Assembly: GCA_965248445.1 (NCBI GenBank)
Contig: CBDFJG010000004.1
Coordinates: 1,280,001 to 1,344,000 of the forward strand
Source: Planctomycetota bacterium
GTDB lineage: Bacteria > Planctomycetota > JAJSAM01 > JAJVHW01
Reading direction: 5' to 3'
Length of the DNA stretch: 64,000 nt
In this document: positions 5,994-32,297 of the stretch, piece after piece
How the letters are laid out: each line of letters starts with the position of its first letter
Position numbering within the stretch: position 1 is the first letter of the stretch
Made by a program: the position numbers and the translations under genes
Notes under the pieces: generated by a model
What the model was told of the DNA's origin: nothing
The model's database searches: none
The model's input: only the letters and a program-made list of their open reading frames with translations

Positions 5994-6074
5994 AAGAGTG
6001 ACCGGAGCAGCCCCGGGTCACTCTTCGGGTCACTCATTTCCTGCGACATGTGCAACAGATGCGACGGATGCGAC
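5994..6074. repeat. left arm-like repeats of att site: AAGAGTGACC / GGTCACTC(TT/AT) copies and four TGC(G/A)AC units at 9-bp spacing
   Basis: AAGAGTGACC at 5994, GGTCACTCTT ~6016, GGTCACTCAT ~6028; TGCRAC at 6042, 6051, 6060, 6069. Confidence 0.6.
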
Positions 6075-6116
6075 GAGCAATCGTCGTAAGTCCAGCCTCA
6101 GCAAGGGCGGCCCCAC

Positions 6117-6164
6117 TGCTTCGGGAGCAAGAGGCCGGAGGTTCAAATCCTCTCGCCCCGACCA
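6117..6164 (+). pseudogene. 3' half of tRNA-Pro(CGG), probable integrase attachment (att) core
   Basis: TGC-TT-CGG-GA-GCA anticodon stem-loop, GGAGGTTCAAATCCTCT T-arm, CGCCCCGACCA acceptor 3' end; no matching 5' half upstream; adjacent to integrase. Confidence 0.85.
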
Positions 6165-6242
6165 GCGTAATGCGCGATGAGCGCGTGACTTACGACGTTT
6201 CCCCGCGCGCCCTTCGAGTATGCCATCCGGCCCGATTCCGCG

Positions 6243-6353
6243 AAGAGTTGGGTAAGAGTTGCGTTACGGGCCTGCGTCGAGCCCGGGGTGCGGGGAGCGT
6301 GCTGCTGTGACTGCGGGGAGTTGCACGGGCTGCACACCTTGCACGGGCTGCAG
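6243..6353. repeat. right arm-like repeats: AAGAGTTG x2 and TGCA(C/G) x4 at 9-bp spacing
   Basis: AAGAGTTG at 6243 and 6254; TGCAC at 6322, 6331, 6340 and TGCAG at 6349. Confidence 0.55.
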
Positions 6354-6447
6354 GACCGGCGGCTGCTCCCCGCCGCGGACTGGCCCGACGGCGCGCCGTG
6401 TCGCGCCGTGCGCGCGTCATCGGCGGCCTGCGCGCCCATCCCTCGCG

Positions 6448-7689
6448 CTACTCGCCCGAGGCCGCCCTGCGCGCACGTCGGCGCGTCGTGGCGCCCTTCT
6501 CGCCGTTCGCCCGGAAGTCCAGTGCGAGGACGGCGCTGCGGCGGCGTTCGCTGAGGGAGGCGGCGTAGATCTGCGTGGTGGCCAGCGCGGCGTGCCCGAG
6601 CTGTTGCTGGAGGTCGGTGACCGCGCCGCCGCCCTCCAGGAAGTGCGTCGCGAAGGAGTGCCGCAGGCAGTGGAACGTCAGCCCCTCGCGGCCTTCGAGT
6701 CCCGCGCCACGCAGTGCGATGGCCCAGGACTTGGTGACGTTGCTGAACGGCGTCCCGCGGCGGGAGAGGAAGACGTGGTCGCCCGGCCCGGTCTTCTTCC
6801 GCCGCATCCGGAGCCGCAGCAGCGCGGTGCGCACGGCGGGGTGCAGGTCGATCGCATCGACGTTGCCGACCTTGCTGCGGACCAGCGTGATCTTGCCGCG
6901 GTCGAAGTCGATGTCGCTCCAGCGCAGCGCGGTCAGCTCGCTCTTGCGGGCACCCGTGTAGACGGCGGCGACGACCAATGGACGGAAGTGCTTGGGGCTG
7001 TGCTCGATCAGGCGGGCGATCTCGTCCTTGCTGAGGTAGCGGCGCGGGCGCTTCGGCTCGCGGAGCTTGCGGAGTCCCGCGAGTGGGTTGCGCTCGATGT
7101 GCCCGTCGAGGACGGCCTCGTTGAGGATGCGGCTGGCGAACTGCTGGTCGGCGTTGACGGTGCGGGGGGAGACGGTCGTGGCGGTCCCGTGGGTCGAGTT
7201 GCGCACGCCGAGCCGCCACGCGCGGTAGTCGAGCCAGGATGACGGCGTGATCTCGTCGAGCGGCGTGTCGCCGTAGAAGGCGGTGAGCGCCTTGAGGGCC
7301 GCGCGGTAGAGCCCGAGCGTGCCCTTGGCGAGCGTGGCGACGAGCCGGTTCTCGATCACCGACTCGGCGTACGCGGTAAAGGAGGGGATCGCCGGGACGG
7401 TGGGCTGCTCGTCCTCGTCGGCCCTGCCCAGCGCGGTTCCCGCGACCGGCTCCGTGCGCATCGTCTCGGCCAAGGTCGGCGGTGTCTCGTAGACCTTCGC
7501 GAGGATGCGGCGCTCGAGCTCGTCGAGGAAGTCGTGGGCGTCCTTCTCGGTGTCGAAGTGCCGCGTGACCCGCTTGCCGTCCTGCGTCTGGTCGAACCAC
7601 TGCGCGGCCCAGGTCGTCCGGCCCGACTTCCACCGCCGCGGGAACACGTGCCCGAAGCGCCGCCGCTGGCGTGCCTTGCGTCGGCTCAA
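6448..7689 (-). CDS. tyrosine recombinase / phage integrase
   Basis: YTGARKSEL (R), FHCLRHSF (HxxR), LGHA (H), TTQIYA (Y); TTG start at 7689 with AAGGAGG RBS; basic N-terminal arm-binding-like region. Confidence 0.93.
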   Translation of the reverse strand: MSRRKARQRRRFGHVFPRRWKSGRTTWAAQWFDQTQDGKRVTRHFDTEKDAHDFLDELERRILAKVYETPPTLAETMRTEPVAGTALGRADEDEQPTVPAIPSFTAYAESVIENRLVATLAKGTLGLYRAALKALTAFYGDTPLDEITPSSWLDYRAWRLGVRNSTHGTATTVSPRTVNADQQFASRILNEAVLDGHIERNPLAGLRKLREPKRPRRYLSKDEIARLIEHSPKHFRPLVVAAVYTGARKSELTALRWSDIDFDRGKITLVRSKVGNVDAIDLHPAVRTALLRLRMRRKKTGPGDHVFLSRRGTPFSNVTKSWAIALRGAGLEGREGLTFHCLRHSFATHFLEGGGAVTDLQQQLGHAALATTQIYAASLSERRRSAVLALDFRANGEKGATTRRRARRAASGE

Positions 7690-7693
7690 CTCT

Positions 7694-8341
7694 CTACCTC
7701 CTTGCCTCCCGGGACCCTGGCCCGGAGGACTCTTGCTTCGCATGGACGCTCTCCGCGCGCCCGATCGCGAGGTCGTTCCAGGGGGCGGGGCGGGATCGTC
7801 GCGAAGTCCCCGAGACAAGCCGCTCGGCCCGGCCCGAGCGAGCCGCCCCGGCCCGCGTGCGCTCGGCGAGGAACGCCTCAACCTCCTGCGGCCGAAACCG
7901 CAAGAGGCGCGGTCCGAGTGACACAGACGGGAGAGCACCCGACGTGGCGAGCCGGTAGACGGTCGTCTTGTCCACGGCGAGGTACTCCGCGACTGCGGCG
8001 GCATCCACCAGCGGCTCCTCCCACGTCACCGGAGGCGGCCCCAGCGCGGGACGAGGAGCGGCGCGATCCCGAGCGCGCGGTTGCGACGTTGGGATCGCTC
8101 CTGCGCGGCGAGGAGGGGCGCCAAGTCGATCGGAGCGGGGCGCCGGCGCGTCACCCCGGCTCTGCCTGCCGGCCCCGCGGGAAGCCCCCGCCTGGAGCCG
8201 CAGGAACTCCGCCTGACGGACGCGGCGGTGGCGCTGCTTGCGGCGTTTCTCCACGGCCAGCCACCGCGGCGTGCGGCCGTCCTGCGCGCACAGGACCTCG
8301 ACGATCCGGCGACGTTGGGCCTGCGTGGTCTGCTTCCTCAC
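7694..8341 (-). CDS. excisionase-like HTH_17 DNA-binding protein (HTH domain begins ~8029)
   Basis: LVDAAAVAEYLAVDKTTVYRLATSGALPSVSLGPRLLRFRPQEVEAFL; GTG 8341 with GGAGG overlapping the upstream TGA; alternative start GTG 8029. Confidence 0.75.
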   Translation of the reverse strand: MRKQTTQAQRRRIVEVLCAQDGRTPRWLAVEKRRKQRHRRVRQAEFLRLQAGASRGAGRQSRGDAPAPRSDRLGAPPRRAGAIPTSQPRARDRAAPRPALGPPPVTWEEPLVDAAAVAEYLAVDKTTVYRLATSGALPSVSLGPRLLRFRPQEVEAFLAERTRAGAARSGRAERLVSGTSRRSRPAPWNDLAIGRAESVHAKQESSGPGSREARR

Positions 8342-8982
8342 CGGCCACCTCCCCGGCGGCCCATGCGCCCGTCGATGGCCCGCAGCGCCGCTTCGGCCTG
8401 CTCGAGGGCGCCGACGATCTCGTGCTCCTCCAGCGCGGCCACGAGGCAGAGCGCGTCCACCCGCTCCTTGGCGGCCGCGAGATCGGTGTGGAGCCCGTCC
8501 ACCTCGGGGGCGTTGACGATGCGCGTGTACGCCTCCATGAACTGCCCGACCGTCTCGCGCACGAGCAGCCGGTTGGCGGTGTGGTGCCACTGGACCCACT
8601 CGTCGCGCAGCCGCTCGGCCACCTCGCGCAGCCGCGGGTCGGCGCTCGCGCGCAGCAGGTTCTCCGAGCGGTCGATCGTGTGGTTCGAGTCGAGGGAGAG
8701 GTTGACCATCTGGTTGCGGGTCTCGCCCCAGCGGTTCCGCGCGGCATCGGAGAGGAGCCGGGCCTCCTGCCACTCCTGGTGCAGTTCCTCGACCCGCTCG
8801 TCGAGCGGCGGGATGTCCTCGCGCTTCACCCGCCGCGCTTCCTCGATCGCGGCCACGAGCTCGTGACGCCGGGCGGTCGCTGCGGCCTGCTTCTCGCCCT
8901 GGCGCTCCATCTCATCCACATGGCGCCGTCCTTCCGGACTTGCGATCCAGCGGCGGAGGCGTTCCATCACGTCGGTGCTCAT
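8338..8982 (-). CDS. coiled-coil hypothetical protein of the integrated element
   Basis: ATG 8982 with GAGGAG RBS; helical charged sequence; coupled to neighbours. Confidence 0.65.
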   Translation of the reverse strand: MSTDVMERLRRWIASPEGRRHVDEMERQGEKQAAATARRHELVAAIEEARRVKREDIPPLDERVEELHQEWQEARLLSDAARNRWGETRNQMVNLSLDSNHTIDRSENLLRASADPRLREVAERLRDEWVQWHHTANRLLVRETVGQFMEAYTRIVNAPEVDGLHTDLAAAKERVDALCLVAALEEHEIVGALEQAEAALRAIDGRMGRRGGGR

Positions 8983-8986
8983 CGGG

Positions 8987-9373
8987 TCATCTCCTCGCGT
9001 CCCAGGTGGTGGTCGTGGACTCAGCGGCCCGCGCGGGGACAATGCGCCGGGTCCGGGTCGTCTTCGTGGTCGGGCGGCTGCCCAGGCGGACGAGCCGCGT
9101 CTTGACGGTGCGGATCTCGCTGCGGATCGCGCTCGTCTCGGCGAGCCACGTCCTGCCGTCCAGGTAGCGCAGCGCCGAGTACAGACCGCCGCTCCAGTGG
9201 TCGATCTGCTCGCGGCGAGTGACTTCTTGGACCTGCCGTCCGAGTCGCCGACGCAGCCGCCGGACCTCGTACTCGACGTCGCGGCGGCACGAAACGGCGC
9301 AGTAGCGGCGGTGGGGAGCCCGGAATCGAACCACGTACACGGCCCCACAGCGGGTGCAGCGAGGCTCACTCAT
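8987..9373 (-). CDS. small zinc-finger protein (CxxC...YCxxxCR)
   Basis: ATG 9373 with GGAGG; CTRCG...RRYCAVSCRR motif. Confidence 0.6.
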   Translation of the reverse strand: MSEPRCTRCGAVYVVRFRAPHRRYCAVSCRRDVEYEVRRLRRRLGRQVQEVTRREQIDHWSGGLYSALRYLDGRTWLAETSAIRSEIRTVKTRLVRLGSRPTTKTTRTRRIVPARAAESTTTTWDARR

Positions 9374-9597
9374 GGAGTCCTCCACCGCGTTCCCTCCCCC
9401 CCTTGGCTTATTTCGCGCACGCGCACGCGCGATTTCCCGGGGGGCGGCTCGCCACGGCCGCCGGGGGGAGGCGGGGATCGGCCGTGGGCACCCTCGCCTG
9501 CTGGACCGTGGCGCCAATCGCACACGCTCCCGTGCAGGTTTCGAACTCCCGTGCGAGCCTGGCGCGAGGCTGGGAGTTCCGGCGGTTGCGGGGTGCG

Positions 9598-9868
9598 TCA
9601 CGCCGTCCTCCCGCTCGTCGTGCCGAGCAGGCGCTCGGGATCGAGGTCACCGTCGAGCAGGCCGGGATCGAGCGGACCGTCCAGGTCCTCGCCGGGCTCG
9701 AACGTGGCGAGATCGAACGTCAGGAGGTCGATCTGCTCGGCGGGACGGTCGATCTGCTCGGCGGCCACCGCGCCGTCCCTGTCTCCGGAAGGGTCGGAGG
9801 GGTCGGAGGGGTTGCCCAGCCGCTCCCACTGGGCATCTATGTACGCGTCCGTGGCACCGTGTTCGGGC
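9598..9868 (-). pseudogene. 3' fragment of a gene truncated by IS1380 (acidic C-terminus with PSD and AEQID repeats)
   Basis: open frame ...PEHGATDAYIDAQWERLGNPSDPSDPSGD...GRTA* running up to the IS end; frame hits a stop shortly beyond the other IS end. Confidence 0.5.
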
Positions 9869-9872
9869 CTAG

Positions 9873-11541
9873 CCGCATCTGTTCACGAGACGTCGCGATG
9901 ACGGTGCTTTCGGAGTCCACAGGGTCAGATCTTGGCCAGGCGAGGGCGGATGCTGTCGTCGTTGCCACAAGGGCAACGCGAGTGAGCGGCCGAAACGGCG
10001 CGGATTCTGCGGTGTGGGCAGACCGTAGGCCGGGCGGTGGTGTGGCGGACGGCGCGGCGGGACGTCAGGTCGGCTTCGGGGATGCCAGCAGTCGTTGCGC
10101 GCAGCGCTCGAAGACGTGCTGCCAGGGCCACGACGAGGACATCGAGACCCAGATCCGGCGCGTCGTGATCCGCACGAGCGCGCCGATCTTGAGCAGCCGC
10201 AGGCGGATCGTGCCGGCTTGCGCACGCGCCATCTCGGTGCCGGCGAGACCGATGCGTCGCAGCGCACAGGTCAGGACGTAGGCCATGGCCGACATGGCCA
10301 TCCGCACGGCGTTGCCCTGCATCGTGTGCACCGACAGACGGGTGCCGAAGAGCTCGAGCTGCTGCTCCTTGATGCGATTCTCCGCCTCGCCCCGGGCGCA
10401 GTAGAGCTGCTCGTAGAGACGCTTGCTGCTCCAGCTACGAGGCGGCAGATTGGTCACCACGAAGCGGGGATTGCGCTTGCCGCCCGGCAGGTGCTCGGCC
10501 TTGGCGACCACGCGACGCCTCTGGCTCCAGCTCCCCAGCGTGGTCCAGGCAAAGTCGCGAAAGACCCGGGCTGCTCGGCCGGTCTGCACGGCACGGGCTG
10601 CGGCCTCATCGAGCGCGTCTTCGACGTGTCGCTCAAGGCGCTCATTGCGCGCCATGCCCAGCAGGTAGAAGTGGCCGGCGGCCTCGCACCAGGCCATCAG
10701 CTCCTCGCGGCAAAAGCCCGAGTCTGCGCGCACGAGCACCTTGGCCCGGGGCCAGCGGCGCCGCAGACGTAAGACCAGCGCACGGAGCTCGTCCACGACT
10801 CCGCGCGCGGGATCTCTGTCAGCGGTCTGGAGCCGAGCGAGCAAGAGGTGCTCGCCGCAGAAGACGTACAGCGGCAGGTAGCAGTAGTGCCCGTAGTAGC
10901 CGTGGAAGAAGCGGCCCTCCTGCCGGCCGTGCAGCCGCACGTCGGAGTGGTCCAGGTCCAGCACGAGCAGGCCCGGATCCTCCGGCCCCATGGCCTCGCA
11001 GAAGACGTCGCTGAGCACGCTGTCCACGCGCTCCTGGTCCATCTCGATCTTGGCGTAGCGCGTCTGTGCCGTGGCGCCGAGCTGCGTGGTCTCGAGCCGC
11101 GAGAGCGTCGGGTGCGTGGCCAGAGCACCCTCGCGCTTGCCGCACGCCGCGGCAAACAGCGGGTCCTTGCCGACATGGTCGTGGTCCACCAGATCCTCGT
11201 AGCCCGCGCACAGCCCGAAGACCCGCTGACGCAGCATCTGGCCGACCGTGTGCTCGACCCGACGCGGGTCCCGGTGGTCCCCGAAGCAGCGCGCAAACCG
11301 CGAGAGCAGATCGATGCGACGATCGGTCCGCTCGAGCAGCAGCACGCCCCCGTCGCTCGTCACGGTACCGGCGTCGAAGCGCGTCACCGCGGTGCGTCCA
11401 CAGATGCCCGCGAAGAGGGTCCCCTGCGGGCTACAGTCTGTCGTCATCGGGCCGGCGCTCCTGTCGGTGCAAGTACTAGCGAGTACGAGCACTTAGACAG
11501 ACGACGGCCCGCTCAGATTCCCGGCTGGTGAACGATTCGGG
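9873..11541 (-). mobile_element. IS1380-family insertion sequence (1669 bp) flanked by CTAG
   Basis: imperfect IRs CCGCATCTGTTCAC / GTGAACGATTCGGG; CTAG at 9869-9872 and 11542-11545. Confidence 0.9.
10065..11447 (-). CDS. IS1380 DDE transposase
   Basis: FDAGTVTSDGG, GYEDLVDH, HGRQEGRFFHGYY, VRADSGF, YCARGEAENRIKE motifs. Confidence 0.95.
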   Translation of the reverse strand: MTTDCSPQGTLFAGICGRTAVTRFDAGTVTSDGGVLLLERTDRRIDLLSRFARCFGDHRDPRRVEHTVGQMLRQRVFGLCAGYEDLVDHDHVGKDPLFAAACGKREGALATHPTLSRLETTQLGATAQTRYAKIEMDQERVDSVLSDVFCEAMGPEDPGLLVLDLDHSDVRLHGRQEGRFFHGYYGHYCYLPLYVFCGEHLLLARLQTADRDPARGVVDELRALVLRLRRRWPRAKVLVRADSGFCREELMAWCEAAGHFYLLGMARNERLERHVEDALDEAAARAVQTGRAARVFRDFAWTTLGSWSQRRRVVAKAEHLPGGKRNPRFVVTNLPPRSWSSKRLYEQLYCARGEAENRIKEQQLELFGTRLSVHTMQGNAVRMAMSAMAYVLTCALRRIGLAGTEMARAQAGTIRLRLLKIGALVRITTRRIWVSMSSSWPWQHVFERCAQRLLASPKPT

Positions 11542-14526: not shown

Positions 14527-15078
14527 GTGAAGGACGCCGAGCTCGTCGTCGCCGCCCGCAAAGGCGACGGCGCCGCCTTCGCTGAGCTGGTCGACCGGTA
14601 CGAGGAGAGAGTTCTCCGCCTCGTCCGGGGGATGGTCCCGGTGGCGGATGTGGAGGACGTGGCCCAGGAGGCGCTCCTCAAGGCGTACCGGAAGCTGGCC
14701 CTCTTCGATGGGCGGTCGTCGTTCTACACCTGGCTCTACCGGCTCACGGCCAACACGGCCATGGACTGGCGGAAGAAGGAGGCACGGCGGCGTCACGCTC
14801 CGCTGCCCGAGGGCGCGGAAGGACAGGACCTGCTCCCCGGACGCAGCCCGACACCCGCGGCACGGGCGGCCCAGCGAGAGCTCGGCCGGTTGATCGACGA
14901 AGCGATCGCGTCCCTCTCGCCGCAGCACCACGAGATCCTCATGCTCCGTGAGGTGCAGGGACTCGCCTACGACGACATCGCACAGGCGCTCGACATCAGC
15001 AAGGGGACCGTGGAGTCCCGGCTGTTCCGGGCGCGGGAACACCTCCGCCGAACACTGAGACCGCAGCTCGAAGAGTAA
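14527..15078 (+). CDS. ECF RNA polymerase sigma factor
   Basis: AFAELVDRY, EDVAQEALLKAY, FYTWLYRL, GLAYDDIA..LDISKGTVESRLFRAR. Confidence 0.93.
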   Translation: MKDAELVVAARKGDGAAFAELVDRYEERVLRLVRGMVPVADVEDVAQEALLKAYRKLALFDGRSSFYTWLYRLTANTAMDWRKKEARRRHAPLPEGAEGQDLLPGRSPTPAARAAQRELGRLIDEAIASLSPQHHEILMLREVQGLAYDDIAQALDISKGTVESRLFRAREHLRRTLRPQLEE

Positions 15079-15085
15079 GAACCGC

Positions 15086-15568
15086 ATGAACAACAACGCG
15101 CCCCCCACCGATCCGCACTGGCCCACCGATCCGCGCTGCGAACGCGTGCGACTCTTGCTGTCGCTCGCGATCGACAGGGCCGCAACGCCGCAGCAGCAGC
15201 GCGAAATCGACGACCACCTGCCCGCGTGCGCGGGCTGCCGCACGTCGACGCTCGCCGACCGCGCCGTGCGTGTGCGCCTGCAGGAGCCGGCCGTCGTACC
15301 GGCCGGGTTCAAGGAGCGCGTCCTCGCCGCGATCACGCGACAAGCGGCGGTCGCGCGCTCCCAGAACCGCTTCCTGATGGCCGGTGCGGCTGCGGCCGTG
15401 GTCATCGCCGCCCTATCCGTGGCGCTGCTCCGTCCCGACGGCAGCGGCGACGGCGACGGCGAAGGCGAGACAGTCGCGGCGCAGGACGAGCGCGTGCTCG
15501 TGCGGGACGCCGTCACCGTCTCGTTCGCTGCGGGACGTGTTGCAGCTCCCACGAAGGAGAACCGCTGA
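15086..15568 (+). CDS. zf-HC2 anti-sigma factor with TM segment
   Basis: HLPACAGC (HxxxCxxC), TM FLMAGAAAAVVIAALSVALL, directly follows sigma. Confidence 0.85.
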   Translation: MNNNAPPTDPHWPTDPRCERVRLLLSLAIDRAATPQQQREIDDHLPACAGCRTSTLADRAVRVRLQEPAVVPAGFKERVLAAITRQAAVARSQNRFLMAGAAAAVVIAALSVALLRPDGSGDGDGEGETVAAQDERVLVRDAVTVSFAAGRVAAPTKENR

Positions 15569-15936
15569 TGCTTGCCGACAAGATGATCCTGTCCTCCACG
15601 CTGCTCGTGGCGTTCGCCTCGGGCGGGGCCGTGGGATACGCGCTGAACGACGGCCCGGCTGCGGACGATCGCAACCCCTACGCGGCCCGCATGGTCTTCA
15701 ACGAGCAGATCACGGAGCTGCAGGCCAAGGGCTACGAGAAGGCCGAGGCCGACGACGCTGTCGACGCGTACACCGACTACCTCCGCGAGTACCAGAAGTG
15801 GTGGGATGCGTTCGCCGAGAGCCACGGCGCCAACCTCGACCTCGTGGACGAGGAACTGCGGGAGCGGCTGGCAGAGGTCGAGGCCAGGTACCGCACACGG
15901 ACGGGCGGTCCGGACTCGGGAAACGACAAGAAGTGA
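15568..15936 (+). CDS. membrane-anchored/periplasmic helical protein co-transcribed with ECF/anti-sigma
   Basis: TGATG overlap, AAGGAG RBS, N-terminal hydrophobic LLVAFASGGAVGYAL. Confidence 0.7.
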   Translation: MLADKMILSSTLLVAFASGGAVGYALNDGPAADDRNPYAARMVFNEQITELQAKGYEKAEADDAVDAYTDYLREYQKWWDAFAESHGANLDLVDEELRERLAEVEARYRTRTGGPDSGNDKK

Positions 15937-19303: not shown

Positions 19304-20348
19304 CATGCATATCCGGTTAATGACCGCGCCCACTACATCTTGTGCTAGAAGGGCAGCGGGCTTGCAGGCTCGTCGGCGTAGACCTGTTCGTACGTGCGCG
19401 GCGGCGTCTTCGCCGCGATGCCGAGGACCGTCTGGAACGCTGCCTGCGGCGTGCGTCTCCTGTTGAACCGGAACGTGAACTCGTCGAGATACCGCTGCAG
19501 GTGCTTCTTCGAGACCCGGCCGTGGTGCGTGCCTACGAGCCAGGTCTCTTGAGGTTGGAGAAGACCAGGTGCAGGTGCCTCAGGACGTCCGCCTGCGCCG
19601 CGCCCATCATCGTGGACTCGATCCCGTGCTCGTAGCCGAGTTTCTCGACTGCGTCGTAGGTCTCGTGGCCGTCGGTCACGACGAGCGCCCCACGCTCGAT
19701 GCTGTCCTTGACGAACGCCAGCAGGTGCGGCTTCGATGAGGCCGGCACGTGGCGCAGCCGGATGCGTCCGGGCTGTGTACCTCTCTTCGTCGGACGCACC
19801 TCGACCGCGCCGACCACGACGGCCTTGTCTGCCGCGGTGCGCTCCTCTCGGCCTCGAAACGGCGCTCCGATCAGCGCCTCGTCGACCTCGACGACGCCGA
19901 ACAACTGCGCGCGCTCCGGCGCGACCATCGCAGATCGCAGTTTCTGGAGCATCTGGTACGCGGTCTCGTAGCGGGTCAGACCGAGCTGTCGCTGGAGTGC
20001 GAGCGCAGAGACGCCCCGCTTGTCCGTCGTCATCAAGTACGCGGCCCACATCCAGGACTTCAGCGGCAGCCGGCTGCGATGCAGCACTGTGCCCGCGGTG
20101 ACCGACGTGATCAGGTCGCAGCCCACGCACCGCATCGCTCTTCGATCTGGACGGGGCCAGTACTTCTTGCCGCCGCACCGGCGGCAGCGGAACCCGTCGG
20201 GCCAACGACACTGCACGAGGTACTCGAGGCACTGCTCTTCCGTCGCGAACTGCTCCGTGAACTCCACGATGTTGCGAGGGTAGCCCGGCTTCGGCATGCG
20301 TCCGAGACACTACCCCTTGGGGTCACGGTCGTCAACCGGATATGCATG
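19304..20348 (-). mobile_element. IS1595-family insertion sequence (1045 bp) with 8-bp TSD CGAGATAG
   Basis: IRs CATGCATATCCGGTTAATGACCG / rc CATGCATATCCGGTTGACGACCG (21/23); TSD at 19296-19303 and 20349-20356. Confidence 0.95.
19345..20297 (-). pseudogene. IS1595 transposase, frameshifted by an apparent 2-bp duplication near 19545-19548
   Basis: Zn ribbon CRRC..CVGC, VEVDE, VVTDG, FSNLK in one frame; TWLVGTHHG..KHLQRYLDEFTFRFNRR continues in another frame. Confidence 0.88.
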
Positions 20349-24616: not shown

Positions 24617-25843
24617 TCAGGAACCCGGTCCGGAAGAGCTGCCCGAAGAGCCACCAGAGGAGCCGCCACCTCCCCCGCCTCCGCCACCCCGGCGCCCTCG
24701 GCGTCGTCGGCGCGGCCGGGACGACTTCTCTGCTCCGGGCTTTCCGCTGGGCTTCCCGCCGGGCGCGCCGCCGGAGGGCTTCGCGCCCCCGGACTGTGTG
24801 CCCCCGGACTGGCCACCACCGGCACCGGACGGGCCGGGACCGCCAGGCCGCGAACCGCACCCCCTGCGGCGGCGGCGGCCGGGACCCGACCCCTCTCTCT
24901 TCGACCCGTCGTTCCGGGGCCCGTCCTTCGTCGCCTTACCCGGCCGCGCGGACCGGTCGCCTCCGGACGTGCGTTTCGCGCCCGAGCGACCGCCCTGCCG
25001 ACTCCGGCCGCCGCGGGAACGGCGACCGCGCCCACTGCCGGACCGTCCACCGTCGGACCGACCACCGCCGGACCGGCCACCGTCGCCCTTGCGGCGGGTC
25101 GGCCGCTCCGACGCCTCGGGGAGGTGCGCCTCGGGCGTTGCGTCGAGGAGTTCCTCGACCGTCCTCGGGCGCTCGTCCGCGGCTGGTTCCTCGCCGCGCT
25201 CCGCGGCCTCGCGGGCCGCACGCCGTGCCATCTTGCGGCGCCGGGCGCGCTCCTCGGAGCGCCGCTGACCCGGGTAGAGCTCGGGGCCACGGTCTTCGGG
25301 CACGTCCGGCGCCTCGTCTGCGGCGTCTTCCTCTGCAGTCTCGTCGGCAACGGTGCCCGCGGCGTCGCTCGGAGCGTCCGCCTCAGTGGCCGCCTCAATG
25401 GTCGCCGGGGGCGCGCCCTCGGCTGCCGGTTCGTCGCCGGGAGGCGGGCGGATCAGGAGGTCGCGCGGGTCCTGGGGACCGCGCTCGGGATCCTCGACGG
25501 CCTCGACCGTCAGAAGCGCCGGCAGGTAGCCGCGCGGCTCTCCGAGGGCGCGGACGCGGCGCGTGTAGTTCCAGCCGAGGAAGTCGCGCAGCAACTCGTC
25601 GTGGGCGAGCGTGATAGCACGGTCCGTTACGGGCTCAGGTGCCGAGGGGACCGGATCGAAGTACGTGCACGACAATCCGAACACGAGCGGACAGTCCACC
25701 ATGTGCACGACGCCGAGGTCGTTGCGGCACAGAGTCGTCGCCTCCGGAGCCGCGCCCTCCGCTTCGGCAACGCGGTGCAGGTTGTTCGCGCACAGGCTCG
25801 TCGCGGGCACGGAGGTGGCGGTTGGGGTCTCGAAGTCGGCCAT
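24617..25843 (-). CDS. hypothetical protein: Cys-containing N-terminal domain plus long acidic then Arg/Gly-rich disordered tail
   Basis: long ORF with plausible codon usage; 4 Cys in first ~65 aa; low-complexity tail. Confidence 0.6.
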   Translation of the reverse strand: MADFETPTATSVPATSLCANNLHRVAEAEGAAPEATTLCRNDLGVVHMVDCPLVFGLSCTYFDPVPSAPEPVTDRAITLAHDELLRDFLGWNYTRRVRALGEPRGYLPALLTVEAVEDPERGPQDPRDLLIRPPPGDEPAAEGAPPATIEAATEADAPSDAAGTVADETAEEDAADEAPDVPEDRGPELYPGQRRSEERARRRKMARRAAREAAERGEEPAADERPRTVEELLDATPEAHLPEASERPTRRKGDGGRSGGGRSDGGRSGSGRGRRSRGGRSRQGGRSGAKRTSGGDRSARPGKATKDGPRNDGSKREGSGPGRRRRRGCGSRPGGPGPSGAGGGQSGGTQSGGAKPSGGAPGGKPSGKPGAEKSSRPRRRRRGRRGGGGGGGGGSSGGSSGSSSGPGS

Positions 25844-25874: not shown

Positions 25875-25913
25875 AGAAAGAGACGACGCCGCCCGCGCAG
25901 TGCGCGGACGGCG
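25875..25913 (-). terminator. putative intrinsic terminator closing the ECF-CHAT cluster
   Basis: minus strand CGCCGTCCGCGCACTGCGCGGGCGGCG hairpin followed by TCGTCTCTTTCT, ~25 nt after the 25938 stop. Confidence 0.5.
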
Positions 25914-25937
25914 CGTTCCTTCTCTCCCGCTCGCGGC

Positions 25938-26558
25938 TCAGGCGACCCGGATGCGACCGGCTGCGGGGAACCGCCGTTCGGTACGCGTACCGGTGTCGCT
26001 TCGCTCGACCTCGAGGCGACCGCCCAGGGCGGTCACGAGGCCGTTTACGTGCGGGTCCGTGCTCTCCTCGCCCGTTCCGGTGTCCCGGACGACGAGGACG
26101 AGTCCACCGTGGCCGGCAGGTCGCACACTCACGACGACGCGGGCCTGTGCCGCTGCGGAGTGGCAAATGCCCTCCTCAACGACTCGCGTCAGCACGTTCA
26201 CAACCGCCGCGACATCGATGTCGTGGTTGCTGCGGGTCGTGCTTGTCGTGATCAGTAGTACGCCCTGGTCCTGCGCCAGCGGCTCAACGACCGTGCGCAG
26301 ACGACGGAAGATCTCCGCCGACGTGCAACGCGGCCGCATTTCAAGTGCGCCCCCCGCCGGCGTGGCCGTGCGGTCCGCCTGAGATCGAATGACGCCTACA
26401 TCGGCGACATGTTCGGATTCCTGGAGTGTTCGGGTCCCCTCTCTCTCGGGTTCCCACCGCCGATCGAGACGGCACACTTCCAGCACCGCAGCGAGTTCCG
26501 GCGCGAACGCTGGAGCCGCTGTGCGCTTGTTGCGCAGCAAGGGGGCGCGGTTCTTCAT
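25938..26558 (-). CDS. degenerate HATPase_c (GHKL)-like domain protein
   Basis: ATG 26558 with AGGAG; LVLVVRDTGTG (G1-box like), LGGRLEVERSDTGT (G3-like); N-box Asn not evident, no HisKA domain. Confidence 0.6.
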   Translation of the reverse strand: MKNRAPLLRNKRTAAPAFAPELAAVLEVCRLDRRWEPEREGTRTLQESEHVADVGVIRSQADRTATPAGGALEMRPRCTSAEIFRRLRTVVEPLAQDQGVLLITTSTTRSNHDIDVAAVVNVLTRVVEEGICHSAAAQARVVVSVRPAGHGGLVLVVRDTGTGEESTDPHVNGLVTALGGRLEVERSDTGTRTERRFPAAGRIRVA

Positions 26559-26572
26559 AGTTGAGCTCCTCA

Positions 26573-27556
26573 TCAGTCGTTCACCGCGGCGTCGCAATCG
26601 ACACAGCCGCGGGTACTCGGTGAACTTCCCGTGATCGAAGACACGGTGTCCATCAACAGATCGCGGACGTCTTCCGGCGTGCGCGTCGAGTCGTCGTCGA
26701 GCGCGAGCGCGGCAGCGCCGCTCACGAGGGCGGCGGAGAACGAAGTTCCGTCCCACCAGCCGTAGTCGATTGCGGCGTCGTCGAGCGCTCCGGAGAGTCC
26801 TTCGCCCGGTGCGTAGATGTCCACCTCGGCGCCACCCGGGCTCCAAGACGCCACGACGTCGTTCGCATCGACCGCGCCGACCGTGATCGACGCCGCGCGC
26901 ACGTCTTCGTCATCGAGCAGATCGTCGGCCGCGTTGCCGGCGGAGGTCACGATCGTGACGCCTGCGGCGACGGCGTCGCTCACGGCGTCCAAGAGAACCT
27001 GCGTCGCATCGGGGATGACGGCGCTGATATTGATCACGTCGACGCCCTCGCTCACCGCGTGGTCGATCGCGGAAGCAAGATCGGCGCACGTGCCATTGCC
27101 CTCGTCGTCAAGACAGCGGATCGGGAGGATCTTGACGCCCGGCGCCGTCGCCCTGATCAGCGAAGCGATGAAGTTGCCGTGACCGGTGTTGCGGTCCGTG
27201 ACGCCGTCGCTGTCGTCGTCGGTGCCGTTCGGCGACTCGTCGACATCGCTGTCGTCGTCCACTGCGTCCCAGGCCCCGCTCTGCAGCGAGCCCGTCCAGA
27301 CCTCGTGGGTCAGGTCAAAGCCACTGTCGAGCACGGCGATGACGATGCCGTCGCCCGTGGCGACCGAGTGCGCATCGCCGGCGAGGATCGCGTCGAGAGC
27401 CGACTGCGAGTCGACCATTGACGCGGAGATCACCTCATCGCGCGCAGGCTTGTCGAACGGCTGCGCGATGACTTCCGCGCCGCTCCGCAGTCCGACCGAG
27501 AAGAGAACCGTTGTCGCCCCCAGCACCAGGGGCAAAAGTGTGTGTCGCGCTCCCAT
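26573..27556 (-). CDS. S8 subtilisin-like serine protease (catalytic domain only, signal peptide)
   Basis: IAVLDSG (D), GHGNFIA (H), SAGN (oxyanion N), DGTSFSA (S). Confidence 0.92.
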   Translation of the reverse strand: MGARHTLLPLVLGATTVLFSVGLRSGAEVIAQPFDKPARDEVISASMVDSQSALDAILAGDAHSVATGDGIVIAVLDSGFDLTHEVWTGSLQSGAWDAVDDDSDVDESPNGTDDDSDGVTDRNTGHGNFIASLIRATAPGVKILPIRCLDDEGNGTCADLASAIDHAVSEGVDVINISAVIPDATQVLLDAVSDAVAAGVTIVTSAGNAADDLLDDEDVRAASITVGAVDANDVVASWSPGGAEVDIYAPGEGLSGALDDAAIDYGWWDGTSFSAALVSGAAALALDDDSTRTPEDVRDLLMDTVSSITGSSPSTRGCVDCDAAVND

Positions 27557-30495
27557 CAGGAGCTCCTTCCTGACTGTGGGCTCACGCTCCCCTGCGCACC
27601 ACCCGACTGAAACTCGTGCCCCTCACCTGTGACCCGGCCGGGATGACCGATCAGGAAGAAGGGCGCCCAGAAGTACGGATGCGCGTGCTTCGCGCGGACG
27701 GAACGCATGGCCGTGCGGAGAGCGGATCCCCACGAGCCTGACTCACGCGCCGCGCCGTAGAAGGCGCGCATGAAGGCCGAGGTGGCCTGGTCGGCAATGC
27801 GCCACTGCCCCGCGAGGAGGCGTGGCGCACCGGCGAACAGGAAACCTCGGAACAACCCCTGCACTTCGTCGCCTCTGGTGACCGCGGCGACACCGCTCTC
27901 GCATGCTGCGAGGGTGACGAGGTCGGAGCGAACGTCGAGGTCGAAGGCGTCGTAAACCGTCAGCGGTCCGTCGGCCAGCTCGATGCTCGAGAGCGCGGAC
28001 TCCTCGCTGTCGTACGTGCCGTGCGTTGCGACGTGCAGGACGTGACTCGTCCGGGCCGCTTCGCGCAGCGCGTCAGACGTCGCTGCTTCGCCGAGCACGA
28101 GACGGGTGTCGGCGCCAAGGGCGTCCGCAACGGCAGCCGCGTCTTCCTCGATCCCCGGGGCGTCGGCATCCGGCAGCGCGAGCACCGTCGGGCTGCCCGT
28201 CGCGCGCCCGTGCCGATGCTGACCGCAGTACGTGAACACCGAAGCACTCGGTGCATACCAGATCTCGAGCTCGTCGCTCAGCCAGCCGCCGTCGTGCGGG
28301 AGCGCGTGGAACGGGAACCCGTGCAGGCACCCGTGCGGCGAGATCACCACCCGGCGTGTCGTGAGGAGATCCGCGATCGGGTCGATCAGGACAGCGTGCA
28401 CTGCCGCCAGGTTCGCCCGCGTTGCCCGAAGCTGCGCGCCCTCGGCCATCGTGGGTGCCGCGTCTGAGGTCTGATGGCTGACGAGCTGACGCTGGAAACG
28501 GCGGAGCAGGCGCTCCAGGTCCTCACGCGGCACGTCGATGGCGACCGCATCGAAGCCGTCGCGCGTGACGACGAACACGTACACGCTCGTGGCTGAGACG
28601 AAGTACTGCAGCAGCGTGGTGTCGGCATCCAGGCTGCGCTGCACGTCTGCCGGCGGCACGGCTCCGACCGCCGAGATCGATGCGAGCTCCGCGTCCTCTT
28701 CCCAAGCGGCCTGCAACGCGGTGTTCACGGACTGCCGGAGCGCCCGGAGTTCGGCACGCAGCGCGCGAGCGCGCTTCTTTCCGGCCGGGGACCGGTCGGC
28801 GACAACGCTCTCGAGCCGCGCGACGAGCGCGTCAGCGCGACGGCGTTGGCGATCGACGCGGCGGCCGCGGAGGGCACCCGAGCGGGTTCGCCGCGCGCCC
28901 CGGTGCGATGCGTCGTGGAGCATGTCAAGGAGCGCGCGCGACTTCGCCCGCTCCGTCAAGGAGAACGCCTCGACGATCCGTTCCGCATCGACGAGCGAGG
29001 ACACGGTCGCGGCATAGAGCGACGCCTTGCTCGCGAGGAAGGCGATCATGAACTCGCCGGGCGGGAGCGAGCCGCGGAACTCCTCGAGGTTGCGCACGGC
29101 GCGCAACCGGATCTCGGTCGCCTCGTCTTCGCGGCCGAGTGCGGCCAACGCAGAGGCGTGGACCTCGCCGAGCTCGACCTGCAGCCATGGCGACGGCACG
29201 CGCCGCATCCGCCGGCGTGCGCCGTCGATCCACGTCATGGCGCGCGCCGGCCGGTGCAGCGCCACGTCGATCGTGGCCAGCAGAACCTCGGCGCCGATCG
29301 TGCGCTCGACGAGCCCGCGACGCAAGAACGCCTCGTGGGCACCCGCTGCGTGCTCGGCCGCTTCGATCGTGTCGCCCACGATGAGCAGCGCGCGCGCCGT
29401 GAGCATGTCCACGTCCGCGAGCCGCGCGCCCATGCCCAGTGCCGCGTAGATCGCCCGTGCCTCGTCCAGCAACTCGACGGCGCGGCGGTCGACCAGCGCG
29501 GCGGTCGCGCCGATCTGGAGCGCCTGCCCCCACTCCTTGCGCTGCCCGAGGCGTGCGAACTCCGCCGACGTTTCGGCCGCGAGCCGCCGGGCACGATCGA
29601 CGAGCCCCACACTCAGCAGCACCTCGGCGCGCTCGAGCCTGCACTGGGCCACGCTGCGCGCACTCCCCAGCTCCGCGAGGTCTCTCTCGGCCTCGCGATA
29701 ACGGTGGAGGGCGGCCTTTACGCGCCCCTGAACGAACTGCGGGTGCGCGCCATTCGCGCGCAGCTGAGCAGCGGAGATCGGAGAGCCCGGCTCTCTGTAC
29801 GCATTCTCGGCCCAGGTCAGGTGACGCTCGGAGGCCTGGTAGCGCTGCACCGCCTCCAGCGAGACCGCTGTGTTCGATGCGAGCGCCGCCCGCAGGTTGC
29901 GAGAGACGTCCTCCAGCCGACGTGCCATGCGGAACCACAGCAGCGCCTCGCGGTACCGCTCCGCCCGCTGCGAGCGCACACCCAGCGCAAGACGCGTCGA
30001 GACGCGGTCGTGCGGGCTGCCGGCTCGCTCGAAGTACGCGTAAGCCGAGAGAGCGGCCCCCTCGGCCTCATCGACCCGTCCGAGCTGGTCGAGCGGGAAC
30101 ACCAATCGGAGTTCGGCGCGGTGCTCGAAGTCCGGGGACTGCGCGCGGCCCAAGCGGGACACCGCGCGGCGCAACAGGCCTACCGCGCGCCGGTTCCTGC
30201 CGAAGTCGATGTACGCCTGCCCCGCAACCGCAAGCGCGCGTCCCCGAGCCAGGTCGCAACCGAATTCGCGGCCGAGCGAGCCCAGGACACGACAGACGCG
30301 CAATGATCCGGATCCCTCGTCGAGAAGAGCGGCGCCCGCTGCGCGATCCAGCGCTTCGAGAATCAGTCCGATCTCCTCGTCGCTCTCCATGAGGACACGC
30401 GCGGCGGCGCTCGTGCTCGTGCTGGCCTGCACGACACGCGCGACTTCCGCGACGAGCTCTACGCTCGCGGTCCCAGCAGGAGCGATGCAGCTCAC
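27556..30495 (-). CDS. TPR-CHAT caspase-like protease
   Basis: long TPR-like helical N-terminus; ERAKSRALLD; HVATHG (His) and LAACES (Cys) dyad; HPYFWAPF end; GTG start overlaps upstream TGA. Confidence 0.92.
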   Translation of the reverse strand: MSCIAPAGTASVELVAEVARVVQASTSTSAAARVLMESDEEIGLILEALDRAAGAALLDEGSGSLRVCRVLGSLGREFGCDLARGRALAVAGQAYIDFGRNRRAVGLLRRAVSRLGRAQSPDFEHRAELRLVFPLDQLGRVDEAEGAALSAYAYFERAGSPHDRVSTRLALGVRSQRAERYREALLWFRMARRLEDVSRNLRAALASNTAVSLEAVQRYQASERHLTWAENAYREPGSPISAAQLRANGAHPQFVQGRVKAALHRYREAERDLAELGSARSVAQCRLERAEVLLSVGLVDRARRLAAETSAEFARLGQRKEWGQALQIGATAALVDRRAVELLDEARAIYAALGMGARLADVDMLTARALLIVGDTIEAAEHAAGAHEAFLRRGLVERTIGAEVLLATIDVALHRPARAMTWIDGARRRMRRVPSPWLQVELGEVHASALAALGREDEATEIRLRAVRNLEEFRGSLPPGEFMIAFLASKASLYAATVSSLVDAERIVEAFSLTERAKSRALLDMLHDASHRGARRTRSGALRGRRVDRQRRRADALVARLESVVADRSPAGKKRARALRAELRALRQSVNTALQAAWEEDAELASISAVGAVPPADVQRSLDADTTLLQYFVSATSVYVFVVTRDGFDAVAIDVPREDLERLLRRFQRQLVSHQTSDAAPTMAEGAQLRATRANLAAVHAVLIDPIADLLTTRRVVISPHGCLHGFPFHALPHDGGWLSDELEIWYAPSASVFTYCGQHRHGRATGSPTVLALPDADAPGIEEDAAAVADALGADTRLVLGEAATSDALREAARTSHVLHVATHGTYDSEESALSSIELADGPLTVYDAFDLDVRSDLVTLAACESGVAAVTRGDEVQGLFRGFLFAGAPRLLAGQWRIADQATSAFMRAFYGAARESGSWGSALRTAMRSVRAKHAHPYFWAPFFLIGHPGRVTGEGHEFQSGGAQGSVSPQSGRSS

Positions 30496-31121
30496 CCGTC
30501 CCTCTTCTCCGACCACAGCTCGACACGCGGCGCGATCGCGTCGTCACCGAGCCGCAGACCGAAGTGATCCGCGCGGTGCTTGCCGAACTCGAACTCGCCG
30601 AACCCGTTGGTGCGCGTCGAGTCCGACGGCAGGTGGTTGACGAGCAAGGTGATCGGGAGGCCCTCGGCGGGCTCACCGTCCGAACGCAGGATCTGCCCGG
30701 AGACGGCGAACTCGTTGCTGAGCTGCCCGGGGTGCAACAGCACATCCAGATGGCTGTCGCCGATCGTGCAGTTCAGGTGGTACTCGTCGGTGCGCGCCAC
30801 GCGGTACCCGGCCATGGCCCGAACCGGCTCGGCGACGAACCACTCACCGTCGTCCGCGGGACTGTAGCCGGCGTCCCCTCCAGCGAGGAGGCGCGCCGTG
30901 ATCGAGCGGACCGACGACACGACGCCGGCAGGCACCGGCGGATACGCGGTCAGGCTGCGATGCGCGAACTGGATCGAGTGGACGTCCTCGCGGCACGGCT
31001 CGCAGTCGATCAGGTGGACGGCGACCTCGCGGGTCAGGTCGTCCACCGGTCCTTCGAGCGCGTAGCGGTACTGCGCGGCGTCATCTGGATGGGTGTTGTG
31101 AGGAAGAGACGGATCAGACAT
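30492..31121 (-). CDS. soluble zinc-binding anti-sigma-like protein with C-terminal beta-sandwich domain
   Basis: HLIDCEPC (HxxxCxxC); no TM; VSGQIL...TRTNGFGEFEF carboxypeptidase-regulatory-like motif; GGAGG RBS. Confidence 0.75.
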   Translation of the reverse strand: MSDPSLPHNTHPDDAAQYRYALEGPVDDLTREVAVHLIDCEPCREDVHSIQFAHRSLTAYPPVPAGVVSSVRSITARLLAGGDAGYSPADDGEWFVAEPVRAMAGYRVARTDEYHLNCTIGDSHLDVLLHPGQLSNEFAVSGQILRSDGEPAEGLPITLLVNHLPSDSTRTNGFGEFEFGKHRADHFGLRLGDDAIAPRVELWSEKRDG

Positions 31122-31151
31122 GCAGGCACCTCCCGGTCAGGGGTCGTGCCC

Positions 31152-31181
31152 GGGTAGTGCGGCGCGGGCGGCGATCCGTAC
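31152..31181 (-). promoter_or_regulatory. putative ECF-dependent promoter upstream of anti-sigma gene (GTACGGAT-N14-CACTACCC)
   Basis: same motif and spacing as the copy at 31878-31907. Confidence 0.55.
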
Positions 31182-31250
31182 ACCCGATCTTCGGATTTCT
31201 CCGAATCCGGGGCCTCGCGAGCCCACGGGGCGTCGCAGCGAGGCTGCGTC

Positions 31251-31811
31251 TCAGGCGGCCTGAGGTGGCTCGAGCCCGCGGTCAGAGAGTGCCTTGCGAA
31301 GGCGTTTGAGTGCGCGGCCGAGGAGCGAACCGATGCTGTTCTCGCTGACGCCGATCTTCGCGGCGAGCGCGGCGTGGGAAAGCGGCGGGTATGTGAAGTG
31401 CTTGCCCTCGATCAGCGTGCGATCCCGATCGGAGAGCCCCTGCACCGCCTCGCGAACGAGCCGGCCGGTCTCCATCGTCTCGACGATCTCGTCAGGAGCG
31501 TTCTCGCCTGGCTGCGGGAGCTGTTCCAGGAGCTCCGTGCTCGAAGCCACATCCCGACGGCGGCGGATCACGCCTCGAGCCGTCCAGCAGACGATGGACG
31601 CGAGCCAGGCGACCCGGCGCTCGCGGCCGGGCATCGCAGCCACGCGGCGGATGACGACGGTCCAGGCGTCGGAGATCGTCTCCTCCGCCTCTTCGTGCGA
31701 GAGCGAGTACCGCCGGCGCAGGATCGACCACATGAGCGGCAGGTAGGCGTTCATGAACACCTCCCAGTCCGCTTCCGCGCGGGGAGGATCGTCGGAGTCT
31801 GCCGTCCACAT
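31251..31811 (-). CDS. ECF RNA polymerase sigma factor (start uncertain; ATG 31811 preferred)
   Basis: WEVFMNAYLPLMWSI, EAEETISDAW, AWLASI; region 4 LSDRDRTLI...LSHAALAAKIGVSENSIGSLLGRALKRLR. Confidence 0.88.
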   Translation of the reverse strand: MWTADSDDPPRAEADWEVFMNAYLPLMWSILRRRYSLSHEEAEETISDAWTVVIRRVAAMPGRERRVAWLASIVCWTARGVIRRRRDVASSTELLEQLPQPGENAPDEIVETMETGRLVREAVQGLSDRDRTLIEGKHFTYPPLSHAALAAKIGVSENSIGSLLGRALKRLRKALSDRGLEPPQAA

Positions 31812-31877
31812 CGAATCAGACCCGGACCCGCGGAGCGCGAGGCTGGAGGGTCCGGGCGGACCGGGGTCCGCATGCGT

Positions 31878-31907
31878 GGGTTTTGTCGGTCGGCGGTGCA
31901 TCCGTAC
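31878..31907 (-). promoter_or_regulatory. putative autoregulated ECF promoter upstream of sigma gene (GTACGGAT-N14-CAAAACCC)
   Basis: same motif and spacing as the copy at 31152-31181. Confidence 0.55.
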
Positions 31908-32051: not shown

Positions 32052-32297
32052 TCAGGCCGGCACGCCGCCCGCGGCGCGGACGGCGGAGAGAACCTCGCCT
32101 TCGTCGGGGAACTCGCCGGTCTCGAGCTTCGAGTAGACGAGGTCGCCGTTCACGCTCACCTCGAAGCACCCGCCGCCGCTCGGGATCAGCTCGTACGAGG
32201 ACACGTGACGCTTCAGCTCCGTCAAGAGCAGGTTGCTCAGGCTCACGGCCTGAGGCTCGTAGTTTCACATTGCGCAGTATTCGAGACGGATCTTCAT
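32052..32297 (-). CDS. Rdx/SelW-SelT-SelH family selenoprotein (81 aa, CxxU, UGA at 32265-32267)
   Basis: MKIRLEYCAM[TGA]NYEPQAVSL...LIPSGGGCFEVSVNGDLVYSKLETGEFP; GGAGG RBS; downstream hairpin. Confidence 0.9.
32236..32254 (-). promoter_or_regulatory. bacterial SECIS hairpin
   Basis: CTCAGGC-CGTGA-GCCTGAG perfect 7-bp stem starting at position +11 after the UGA, G-containing loop. Confidence 0.75.

Follow-up and report, generated by a model that had tools for sequence, protein, structure and literature searches.

Group ECF54 of the extracytoplasmic function (ECF) sigma factors is known, in those passages of the ECF classification that treat it, from Actinobacteria only. Its context there comprises a +1 gene encoding a carboxypeptidase-regulatory-like domain, a subtilase gene and a gene for a tetratricopeptide repeat (TPR)–CHAT protein; the same passages name no putative anti-sigma factor and give the promoter as GTATCAG and CTCC (PMC7826278). 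Proteolytic control has been proposed for the group in the corresponding part of PMC8999054. The locus considered here is a cassette of five genes on the minus strand, between positions 25938 and 31811 of a 64,000-nucleotide stretch (the window) of contig CBDFJG010000004.1 from a Planctomycetota bacterium. It encodes an ECF sigma factor, a likely soluble anti-sigma factor (the +1 protein), a TPR-CHAT cysteine protease, an S8 subtilase and a pseudo-histidine kinase. The best explanation of the cassette is a chromosomal, vertically inherited ECF54-like signalling module; the preferred reading of its action, with a probability of about one half, is that a signal-activated TPR-CHAT protease cleaves the soluble anti-sigma factor and that the freed sigma factor induces the operon of the other four genes. 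The initial annotation, made from the sequence alone, was right that ECF–CHAT–S8 neighbourhoods exist in other bacteria; according to the parts of the literature cited above, however, this gene neighbourhood has already been recorded as the context of ECF54, and proteolysis has been put forward as its mode of control. A literature search that left out most subscription papers turned up no experimental work on this cassette.

Like ECF54 loci, the window contains a sigma gene, a +1 carboxypeptidase-regulatory-like gene, a subtilase gene and a TPR-CHAT gene. Their order differs: CHAT is at +2 and S8 at +3, whereas the description of ECF54, in the passages concerned, places S8 at +2 or −1 and CHAT at +3 or −2 (PMC7826278). 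The window also departs from the group in its Planctomycetota host, the full zinc anti-sigma domain of the +1 protein, a GCA[TC]TAC −10 box, a promoter between the sigma and +1 genes, a probably exported S8 and an extra kinase gene. Because of the host the locus is filed as ECF54-like and not as ECF54, the group being represented in this comparison by its description. ECF58, the sister group from Planctomycetes, is reported in the same classification, as far as its entry goes, with a DUF3470/4Fe–4S protein nearby, no anti-sigma factor and no conserved promoter (PMC7826278); the window, unlike it, has an anti-sigma domain and a conserved motif, the 4Fe–4S family not having been searched for.

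Three further kinds of system use related parts. In type III-E Craspase, Csx29 cleaves Csx30 and relieves the inhibition of CASP-sigma; the cleavage site is not in the sigma-binding part, and a later degradation step has been proposed, according to the relevant portions of PMC10028731. The window shares with it a cytoplasmic TPR-CHAT protein, a soluble two-part anti-sigma factor, an ECF sigma factor that would drive its own locus and a candidate cut site outside the sigma-binding part. It differs in that no Cas7-11 or RNA trigger is seen at the locus, the TPR-CHAT protein scores far below the cut-off of the Csx29 model, the anti-sigma factor is a 209-residue protein of the zinc type, and S8 and kinase genes are added. 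DdvA/DdvS of Myxococcus xanthus likewise joins a zinc anti-sigma domain, TPR-CHAT and an ECF sigma factor in one circuit, as described in the pertinent sections of PMC11506125; DdvA, however, is a single transmembrane protein with a periplasmic CHAT, whereas the protease and anti-sigma factor of the window are separate and soluble, and no defence island is seen at the locus. The likeness to CalpL/CalpT/CalpS and SAVED-CHAT/PCaspase, so far as excerpts of their descriptions go, lies in protease-controlled sigma factors and in a CHAT protein beside a second protease and a kinase. By the same excerpts, those systems are triggered by cyclic oligoadenylate through SAVED, whereas Pfam found no SAVED domain in the window proteins, and they differ from the window in anti-sigma factor and second protease. 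The cassette works like Craspase/Csx30/CASP-sigma, on the reading preferred here, yet is a member of neither the Craspase nor the DdvA type.

Gene layout and conservation

All five minus-strand open reading frames (ORFs) are present as first annotated, and their junctions can be read directly: the +1 and CHAT genes overlap by GTGA (30495–30492), CHAT and S8 by TGATG (27558–27554), and 14 bp containing GAGGAG separate S8 from the fifth gene. Position 31907, given earlier as the cluster edge, is a GTA codon and not a start. Coding score and homology favour ATG 31811 as the sigma start, with ATG 31901 (nearest to 31907) and TTG 31967 as alternatives. A 129-bp gap with a promoter-like motif lies between the sigma gene and the remaining four genes. 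Contigs from two runs of one sample, probably the one from which the DNA came, match the stretch with zero differences.

Altogether, 42 loci were examined: the window, a second copy in the same genome, 20 loci selected among CHAT matches, 17 from sigma matches and 3 from further CHAT matches. A first scan of the genome collection had returned four loci, all from close relatives. Of 61 genomes, 18 have CHAT relatives (6 of 7 within the family); of 301 genomes of the phylum, 21 have the sigma factor (7 of 7 within the family). Among 32 sigma loci of the clade, the +1 gene is present at all 32, CHAT at 31 and S8 at 27, every miss falling at a contig end; the +1 profile used for this count was built from many of the counted loci, and it included two mis-framed translations (L050 and L072), which were excluded from the motif counts, both loci having in-frame matches. 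The 17 loci found by sigma, two of which were also among the CHAT matches, carry the +1 gene in 17 cases, CHAT in 16 and S8 in 12, with all misses again at contig ends. Eleven metagenome loci with 4 kb on both sides, from the best 80 of 313, contain CHAT in eight cases, S8 in seven, the +1 domain in seven and the kinase in none. The kinase stands in the operon at 4 of the 32 sigma loci, the matches at L047 and L072 being neighbours and left out of this count. The neighbourhood survey thus bears out only part of the five-gene unit first proposed: sigma, +1, CHAT and S8 genes are co-conserved, but the five do not form one conserved unit, because the kinase accompanies a sub-lineage only, of which it is an add-on.

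A Nonomuraea locus with the published ECF54 layout matches the profiles with its sigma factor (E 2e-47) and +1 protein (E 2e-10) and has GTATCAG followed by CTCT. Three other actinobacterial plasmid matches belong to the same sigma clade, with no CHAT gene in the stretch compared. The 11.85-Mb record NZ_LT559118.1, filed as a plasmid, is probably a chromosome. In one sub-lineage (L057–L064 and L067), the gene ahead of the sigma gene encodes a probable lipoprotein of about 400 residues that contains a carboxypeptidase-regulatory-like domain and is possibly an output or a signal source.

Sigma factor, anti-sigma factor and promoter

The sigma factor (31251–31811, minus strand; 186 aa from ATG 31811) matches TIGR02937 (E 5e-17) and Pfam sigma region 4 (E 1e-6). 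In the sigma tree, 29 Planctomycetota sequences (the window and 28 others) and four actinobacterial ones form one clade with support 100/99; the outgroup consists of 14 other ECFs of the window's own genome, and no named ECF54 reference was included. The sigma factor of the Nonomuraea locus falls inside this clade, of which the window sigma is the sole member in its genome, on a branch of length 1.37. It is 33–35% identical to its orthologues, whereas these share 47–50% among themselves. Viral contigs give four weak sigma matches.

The +1 protein (30492–31121, minus strand; 209 aa) is modelled as four helices, a linker and a carboxypeptidase-regulatory-like β-sandwich (pLDDT 87.7). Its putative zinc ligands are H11, H36, C40 and C43, arranged as H36-x3-C40-x2-C43 with the fourth ligand about 25 residues upstream. 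The anti-sigma identity first assigned to it is supported by profile matches, superposition of the modelled fold and a predicted complex. The N-terminal part of a profile of 24 homologues matches RslA (E 0.0077) and RsiW (E 0.016), and residues 10–72 superpose on RslA with a middling Z of 5.4 (root-mean-square deviation 3.3, 62 of 62 residues aligned). Pfam zf-HC2 gives no match to the protein, which may explain why it had not been recognised earlier as an anti-sigma factor. PF13620 matches it below the cut-off (E 0.008), and 9 of 24 homologues at E up to 0.05; a Foldseek search with the model returned nothing at E 0.001 or better, and the whole model matches ChrR weakly (E 0.008). The absence of a transmembrane segment agrees with a highest 19-residue hydropathy of 1.04.

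A structure prediction of the sigma:anti-sigma pair, which the initial annotation suggested as a check, gives the sigma factor and +1 residues 5–105 a complex score of 0.79, against 0.01 for the best of three controls. The mark set for this score is reached by 116 of 157 solved pairs and 2 of 215 mismatched pairs. The runs agree in at least 79% of contacts, the pLDDT of each partner is at least 77, and residues 13–83 make up the sigma-binding part of the model. Since comparable ECF/anti-sigma complexes have been solved, the pass may show likeness and not binding by this copy; binding is predicted. In many +1 homologues the N-terminal part is shorter and lacks the zinc motif, which occurs in only 8 of 36 metagenome proteins. 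The +1 protein is likely to be a soluble zinc-type anti-sigma factor of the RslA/RsiW type; the complex model supports binding of the sigma factor, and zinc binding and sigma inhibition are putative.

Ahead of the four-gene operon lies a promoter-like motif (31154–31181, minus strand), GTACGGA, 14 nt, GCACTAC, whose form in the orthologues is a G[TC]ATCA-type box, 14 nt and GCATTAC. This two-part motif with its 14-base spacer is common to five loci including the window, in each case between the sigma and +1 genes. The window motif, scored by a matrix from which it was left out, reaches 12.3 bits, which 151 of 10.8 million genome positions equal. Its −35 box is degenerate (GTACGGA against the published ECF54 GTATCAG), and its −10 box, like that of four close loci, is GCA[TC]TAC and not the CTCC of ECF54. 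GTATCA occurs in 14 of 26 operon-first regions, a set compiled after the motif matches had been seen, where 0.4 would be expected and the highest count among 500 simulations is 5. Of 115 other regions, one has it; the exact GTATCAG is present in locus L033. At the more distant metagenome loci, GTATCA precedes the sigma gene in 9 of 65 cases, and CTCC follows in six of those nine.

A weaker promoter-like motif, GTACGGA, 14 nt, ACAAAAC, precedes the sigma gene (31880–31907, minus strand). Its −35-like box is identical to that ahead of the +1 gene; the 8-mer common to both is present 153 times in 10.8 Mb, a chance of about 0.4% in 250 bp for a pattern picked after seeing it. The motif has no clear counterpart ahead of the sigma genes of the orthologues, and no such motif stands upstream of the sigma-less operons. 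A genome-wide search by weight matrix gave 41 sites above 14 bits, and a search by pattern gave 23 matches, four of them intergenic and two of these at the own locus; neither gave a convincing target outside the locus. The initial proposal that the sigma factor induces its own locus gains support from the motif ahead of the operon and remains a prediction from sequence.

The proteases and the proposed switch

The TPR-CHAT protein (27556–30495, minus strand; 979 aa) is apparently a cytoplasmic cysteine protease, with a Pfam CHAT match at E 3e-53. The catalytic dyad reported for it is intact in the translation: H825 stands in HVATHG and C865 in LAACES. H825, C865 and D902 are invariant (27 of 27). 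The best structural matches of its model (pLDDT 87.6) include separase, Csx29 and DdvA (E 1e-16 to 2e-15), and the His–Cys dyad lies in a caspase-like fold behind TPR repeats, which places the protein with the CHAT/clan CD proteases. DdvA is the closest solved CHAT protein by sequence (E 6e-6); the Csx29 model NF041237 gives the window protein 38.8 bits against a cut-off of 300. Plasmid records hold 17 CHAT matches, none spanning 80% of the query.

The S8 subtilase (26573–27556, minus strand; 327 aa; Pfam E 3e-37) retains the D77/H126/S272 triad noted at first. Export had also been suggested for it, and a hydrophobic stretch at residues 5–23 points, by hydropathy, to a probable signal peptide. 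The pro-region is short, lacking about 110 residues that three orthologues have; short forms are found at other loci too. In a Nonomuraea subtilase (L077, 5538–6944) no signal peptide is evident at the start, so lineages may differ in where S8 is located.

The linker of the +1 protein contains a candidate CHAT cut or grip site, Arg107 (30801–30803, minus strand), here in G-Y-R-V. It is invariant in the 24 aligned +1 homologues, where only one other residue is, and the linker arginine is kept in β-domain-only proteins and in the Nonomuraea protein as well. The surrounding motif, with strict and loose forms, is a small residue, a hydrophobic or small residue, arginine and a small residue. The loose form occurs in 32 of 36 loops of the defining set, against 2.1 and 6.5 in two nulls. 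Applied unchanged to 36 independent proteins detected by the β-domain alone, the strict motif is found in 16 (nulls 0.8 and 1.3, highest 6) and the loose one in 21 (nulls 4.2 and 4.8, highest 14). A small residue following arginine is typical of a scissile bond. The linker arginine is a candidate CHAT cleavage site; since what is observed is its conservation and what is deduced is the cut, it counts as a lead. A second candidate in the window, Arg101 (P-V-R-A), fits the loose form. Separase cleaves after arginine, according to the sections of PMC11506125 that deal with it.

From the computed gene set, its co-conservation, the domain identities and the motifs, we infer the following course, including the signal, the cleavage and its site and the roles of subtilase and kinase. 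At rest, the zinc-type domain of the anti-sigma factor would be wrapped round the sigma factor. A cytoplasmic signal would act on the long TPR solenoid and align the CHAT dyad; CHAT would then hold the anti-sigma factor by its β-sandwich and cut it at the conserved linker arginine, and loss of the N-terminal piece would release the sigma factor. The latter would transcribe the operon from its own motif, the anti-sigma factor providing negative and CHAT positive feedback, with the exported subtilase as output. In this family the operon would also supply a sensor-less histidine kinase, which may pass the signal to a response regulator; in the window lineage it may have lost catalysis and persisted as a non-catalytic partner.

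In such a circuit a separase-like protease would drive transcription with neither CRISPR nor a membrane step involved, and the proteolytic control proposed for ECF54 comes down to three soluble proteins, with the promoter and the candidate cut site both specified. The gene set was catalogued before; the anti-sigma factor, promoter, candidate site and dead kinase are added, and all can be tested.

Several observations weigh against cleavage of the linker by CHAT or against the circuit as a whole. The motif sits in a loop joining two strands of one domain and may be structural; 15 of the 36 out-of-sample proteins miss even its loose form, though many of these come close to it, for example with V-R-G, and Arg107 of the window precedes valine and fails it. 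A cut at 107 lies outside residues 13–83, so a second degradation step would be needed. A PDB search with the catalytic part of CHAT, aimed at an arginine-binding pocket, returned no separase alignment, and CHAT specificity varies: craspases cleave after methionine or leucine, by the relevant sections of PMC11506125. SAVED-CHAT, as far as excerpts describe it, cleaves a second protease and not the sigma factor. The sigma factor and −35 box of the window are each divergent. Finally, four loci, among them the second copy in the window's genome, have CHAT, S8, two +1-like proteins (one a shortened +1 protein, the other β-domain-only) and a kinase of the cassette kind but no sigma gene.

In the RsrA/ChrR kind of soluble zinc anti-sigma factor, oxidation or loss of zinc brings about release. 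If this held in the window, CHAT, S8 and the kinase would be outputs and CHAT would have its substrate elsewhere, for example in the subtilase precursor. The promoter motif ahead of all four genes and the ChrR match of the +1 model are consistent with such a release, as are the CHAT-to-protease cascades known from partial accounts; it is nevertheless rather unlikely, given that the proteins of L039, L040, L056 and Nonomuraea lack the zinc ligands yet keep the arginine motif, that so few of the metagenome proteins have the zinc motif, and that S8 is probably exported whereas CHAT is not. An unlikely explanation, too, is that the arginine loop is a grip or pseudo-substrate, by which +1 and β-domain-only proteins bind and restrain TPR-CHAT, or that TPR-CHAT draws the anti-sigma factor away from the sigma factor by partner switching, without a cut. 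Eight β-domain-only proteins carry the motif beside CHAT, with or without a sigma gene, the arginine does not belong to the sigma-binding part, and separase is kept in check by an inhibitor bound to it, according to the corresponding text of PMC11506125; the invariance of the dyad and the small residue after the arginine argue instead for a cut.

The cleavage reading can be widened, in a form that we hold to be doubtful, to TPR-CHAT and the arginine-loop β-domain as a general cytoplasmic proteolytic switch that has an arginine-directed code of its own, with ECF sigma factors and sensor-less kinases as outputs. It would be a non-CRISPR parent of Craspase-like regulators, the sigma factor being wired through a fused anti-sigma domain and the kinase through a free β-domain protein, and the window kinase would be a dead, selected scaffold.

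The fifth gene and the surroundings

The fifth gene (25938–26558, minus strand) encodes P0005, a pseudo-histidine kinase of 206 aa assigned by alignment with orthologues and a kinase tree. The initial annotation named it a pseudo-HATPase; the catalytic loss stands, and more precisely the protein is a truncated derivative of an intact histidine kinase. Pfam HATPase_c matches it at E 0.011 only, and an atlas search of proteins returned one HATPase_c cluster among otherwise unnamed clusters. Two in-frame deletions take out the H-box helix and the G2 box; the N-box is altered and the D-x-G of the G1 box is retained. The phospho-accepting histidine, present in 6 of 6 aligned cassette kinases, is absent, and P0005 does not have the full set of N, G1 and G2 boxes for ATP binding. 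A frameshift as the origin of these gaps was rejected, the missing boxes being in no other frame.

Orthologues at three loci of other genera are intact HisKA/HATPase_c kinases of about 250 residues without a sensor domain, followed in two of the three by a sigma-54 response regulator. In a quick tree the cassette kinases form one clade (SH-aLRT 100), with P0005 on a long stem. L038 (2821–10344) shows a sigma-less form with a response regulator, a β-domain-only protein, CHAT, S8 and a hybrid kinase; this kinase lies outside the clade, so a kinase may have joined twice. A metagenome relative of the same length, P0006, is 85% identical to P0005, and its S8, presumably from the same contig, has 327 aa and is 75% identical. 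P0005 and P0006 differ at 31 of 206 positions, against 82 of 327 in S8 (p 0.006; p 0.10 against mature S8 only); uneven change along the pair is not significant (p 0.16). This one pair favours a constrained pseudo-kinase over a decaying pseudogene. The sensor-less kinase sub-lineage and its conserved dead copy raise the question of proteolytic control of a two-component output.

The same genome carries a second copy of the cassette (G000:C2:229150-234938; L001, 7148–12940), which is sigma-less and has an intact sensor-less kinase. Its CHAT gene is interrupted by an IS66-type element, and three queries did not find the 5′ half of that gene in the assembly. The genome holds about 45 full-length copies of this 1.5-kb element, more than 99% identical; the flanks of many do not match, a sign of rearrangement among the copies or of joins made in the assembly.

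That the locus is decaying and no longer functional in the window lineage is very unlikely. The interrupted second copy would fit decay, as would the divergent sigma factor, the truncated kinase, the short S8 pro-region and a third-position G+C content of 0.75 in the fifth gene against 0.84–0.87; on the other side, all five reading frames are open, catalytic residues and ribosome-binding sites are intact, with a good site ahead of the fifth gene, short S8 forms occur elsewhere, and the metagenome relative retains both S8 and the pseudo-kinase at full window length.

A terminator-like hairpin of 13 pairs with a short T tail (25886–25914, minus strand), found in a scan of the window, lies 24 bp past the last stop, where the initial annotation placed it. 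Such sites are no commoner than by chance (2 against 2.1 in shuffles), so only its location after the last stop speaks for it.

The surroundings of the cassette are of housekeeping type: an Rdx gene, an amidohydrolase gene and murJ flank it on one side, and carB lies on the opposite side. The distance of the cassette from dnaA is about 28 kb, and its G+C content is similar to that of the remainder of the window. The location beside murJ, amidohydrolase and Rdx is kept in three other genera, in one of them with carB on the opposite side. A search for Cas1 in the genome, which is 92% complete, gave nothing, other cas families and CRISPR arrays not having been searched for; PADLOC reported no cas gene among the five proteins, a search that did not extend to Cas7-11 across the genome. 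It is very unlikely that the cassette acts against phages, as Craspase or DdvA/DdvS without CRISPR would, although the defence role of characterised TPR-CHAT relatives might suggest this: nothing in the analysis points to phage defence, PADLOC giving only a generic subtilase match and a weak one at E 0.005, the Csx29 model staying far below its cut-off, the neighbours listed including no toxic effector and the position among housekeeping genes being kept in the other genera.

The Rdx-family gene directly upstream of the sigma gene (32052–32297, minus strand) has an in-frame TGA at the C-x-x-U position and, with this read as selenocysteine, matches Pfam Rdx at E 6e-20; it probably encodes a selenoprotein. 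Between the cassette and carB lies an ORF of 408 residues (24617–25843, minus strand) that is of low complexity, begins with a Cys-rich part and matches no Pfam family; a similar ORF occupies the same place in L032. Another, ordinary ECF sigma gene with a zf-HC2 anti-sigma gene is found at 14527–15936 (plus strand). A mobile-element patch at 4631–11447 and 19533–20297 contains a two-ORF insertion element (recognised by eye), a phage-type integrase, a DDE transposase and an apparently shortened IS1595-type transposase.

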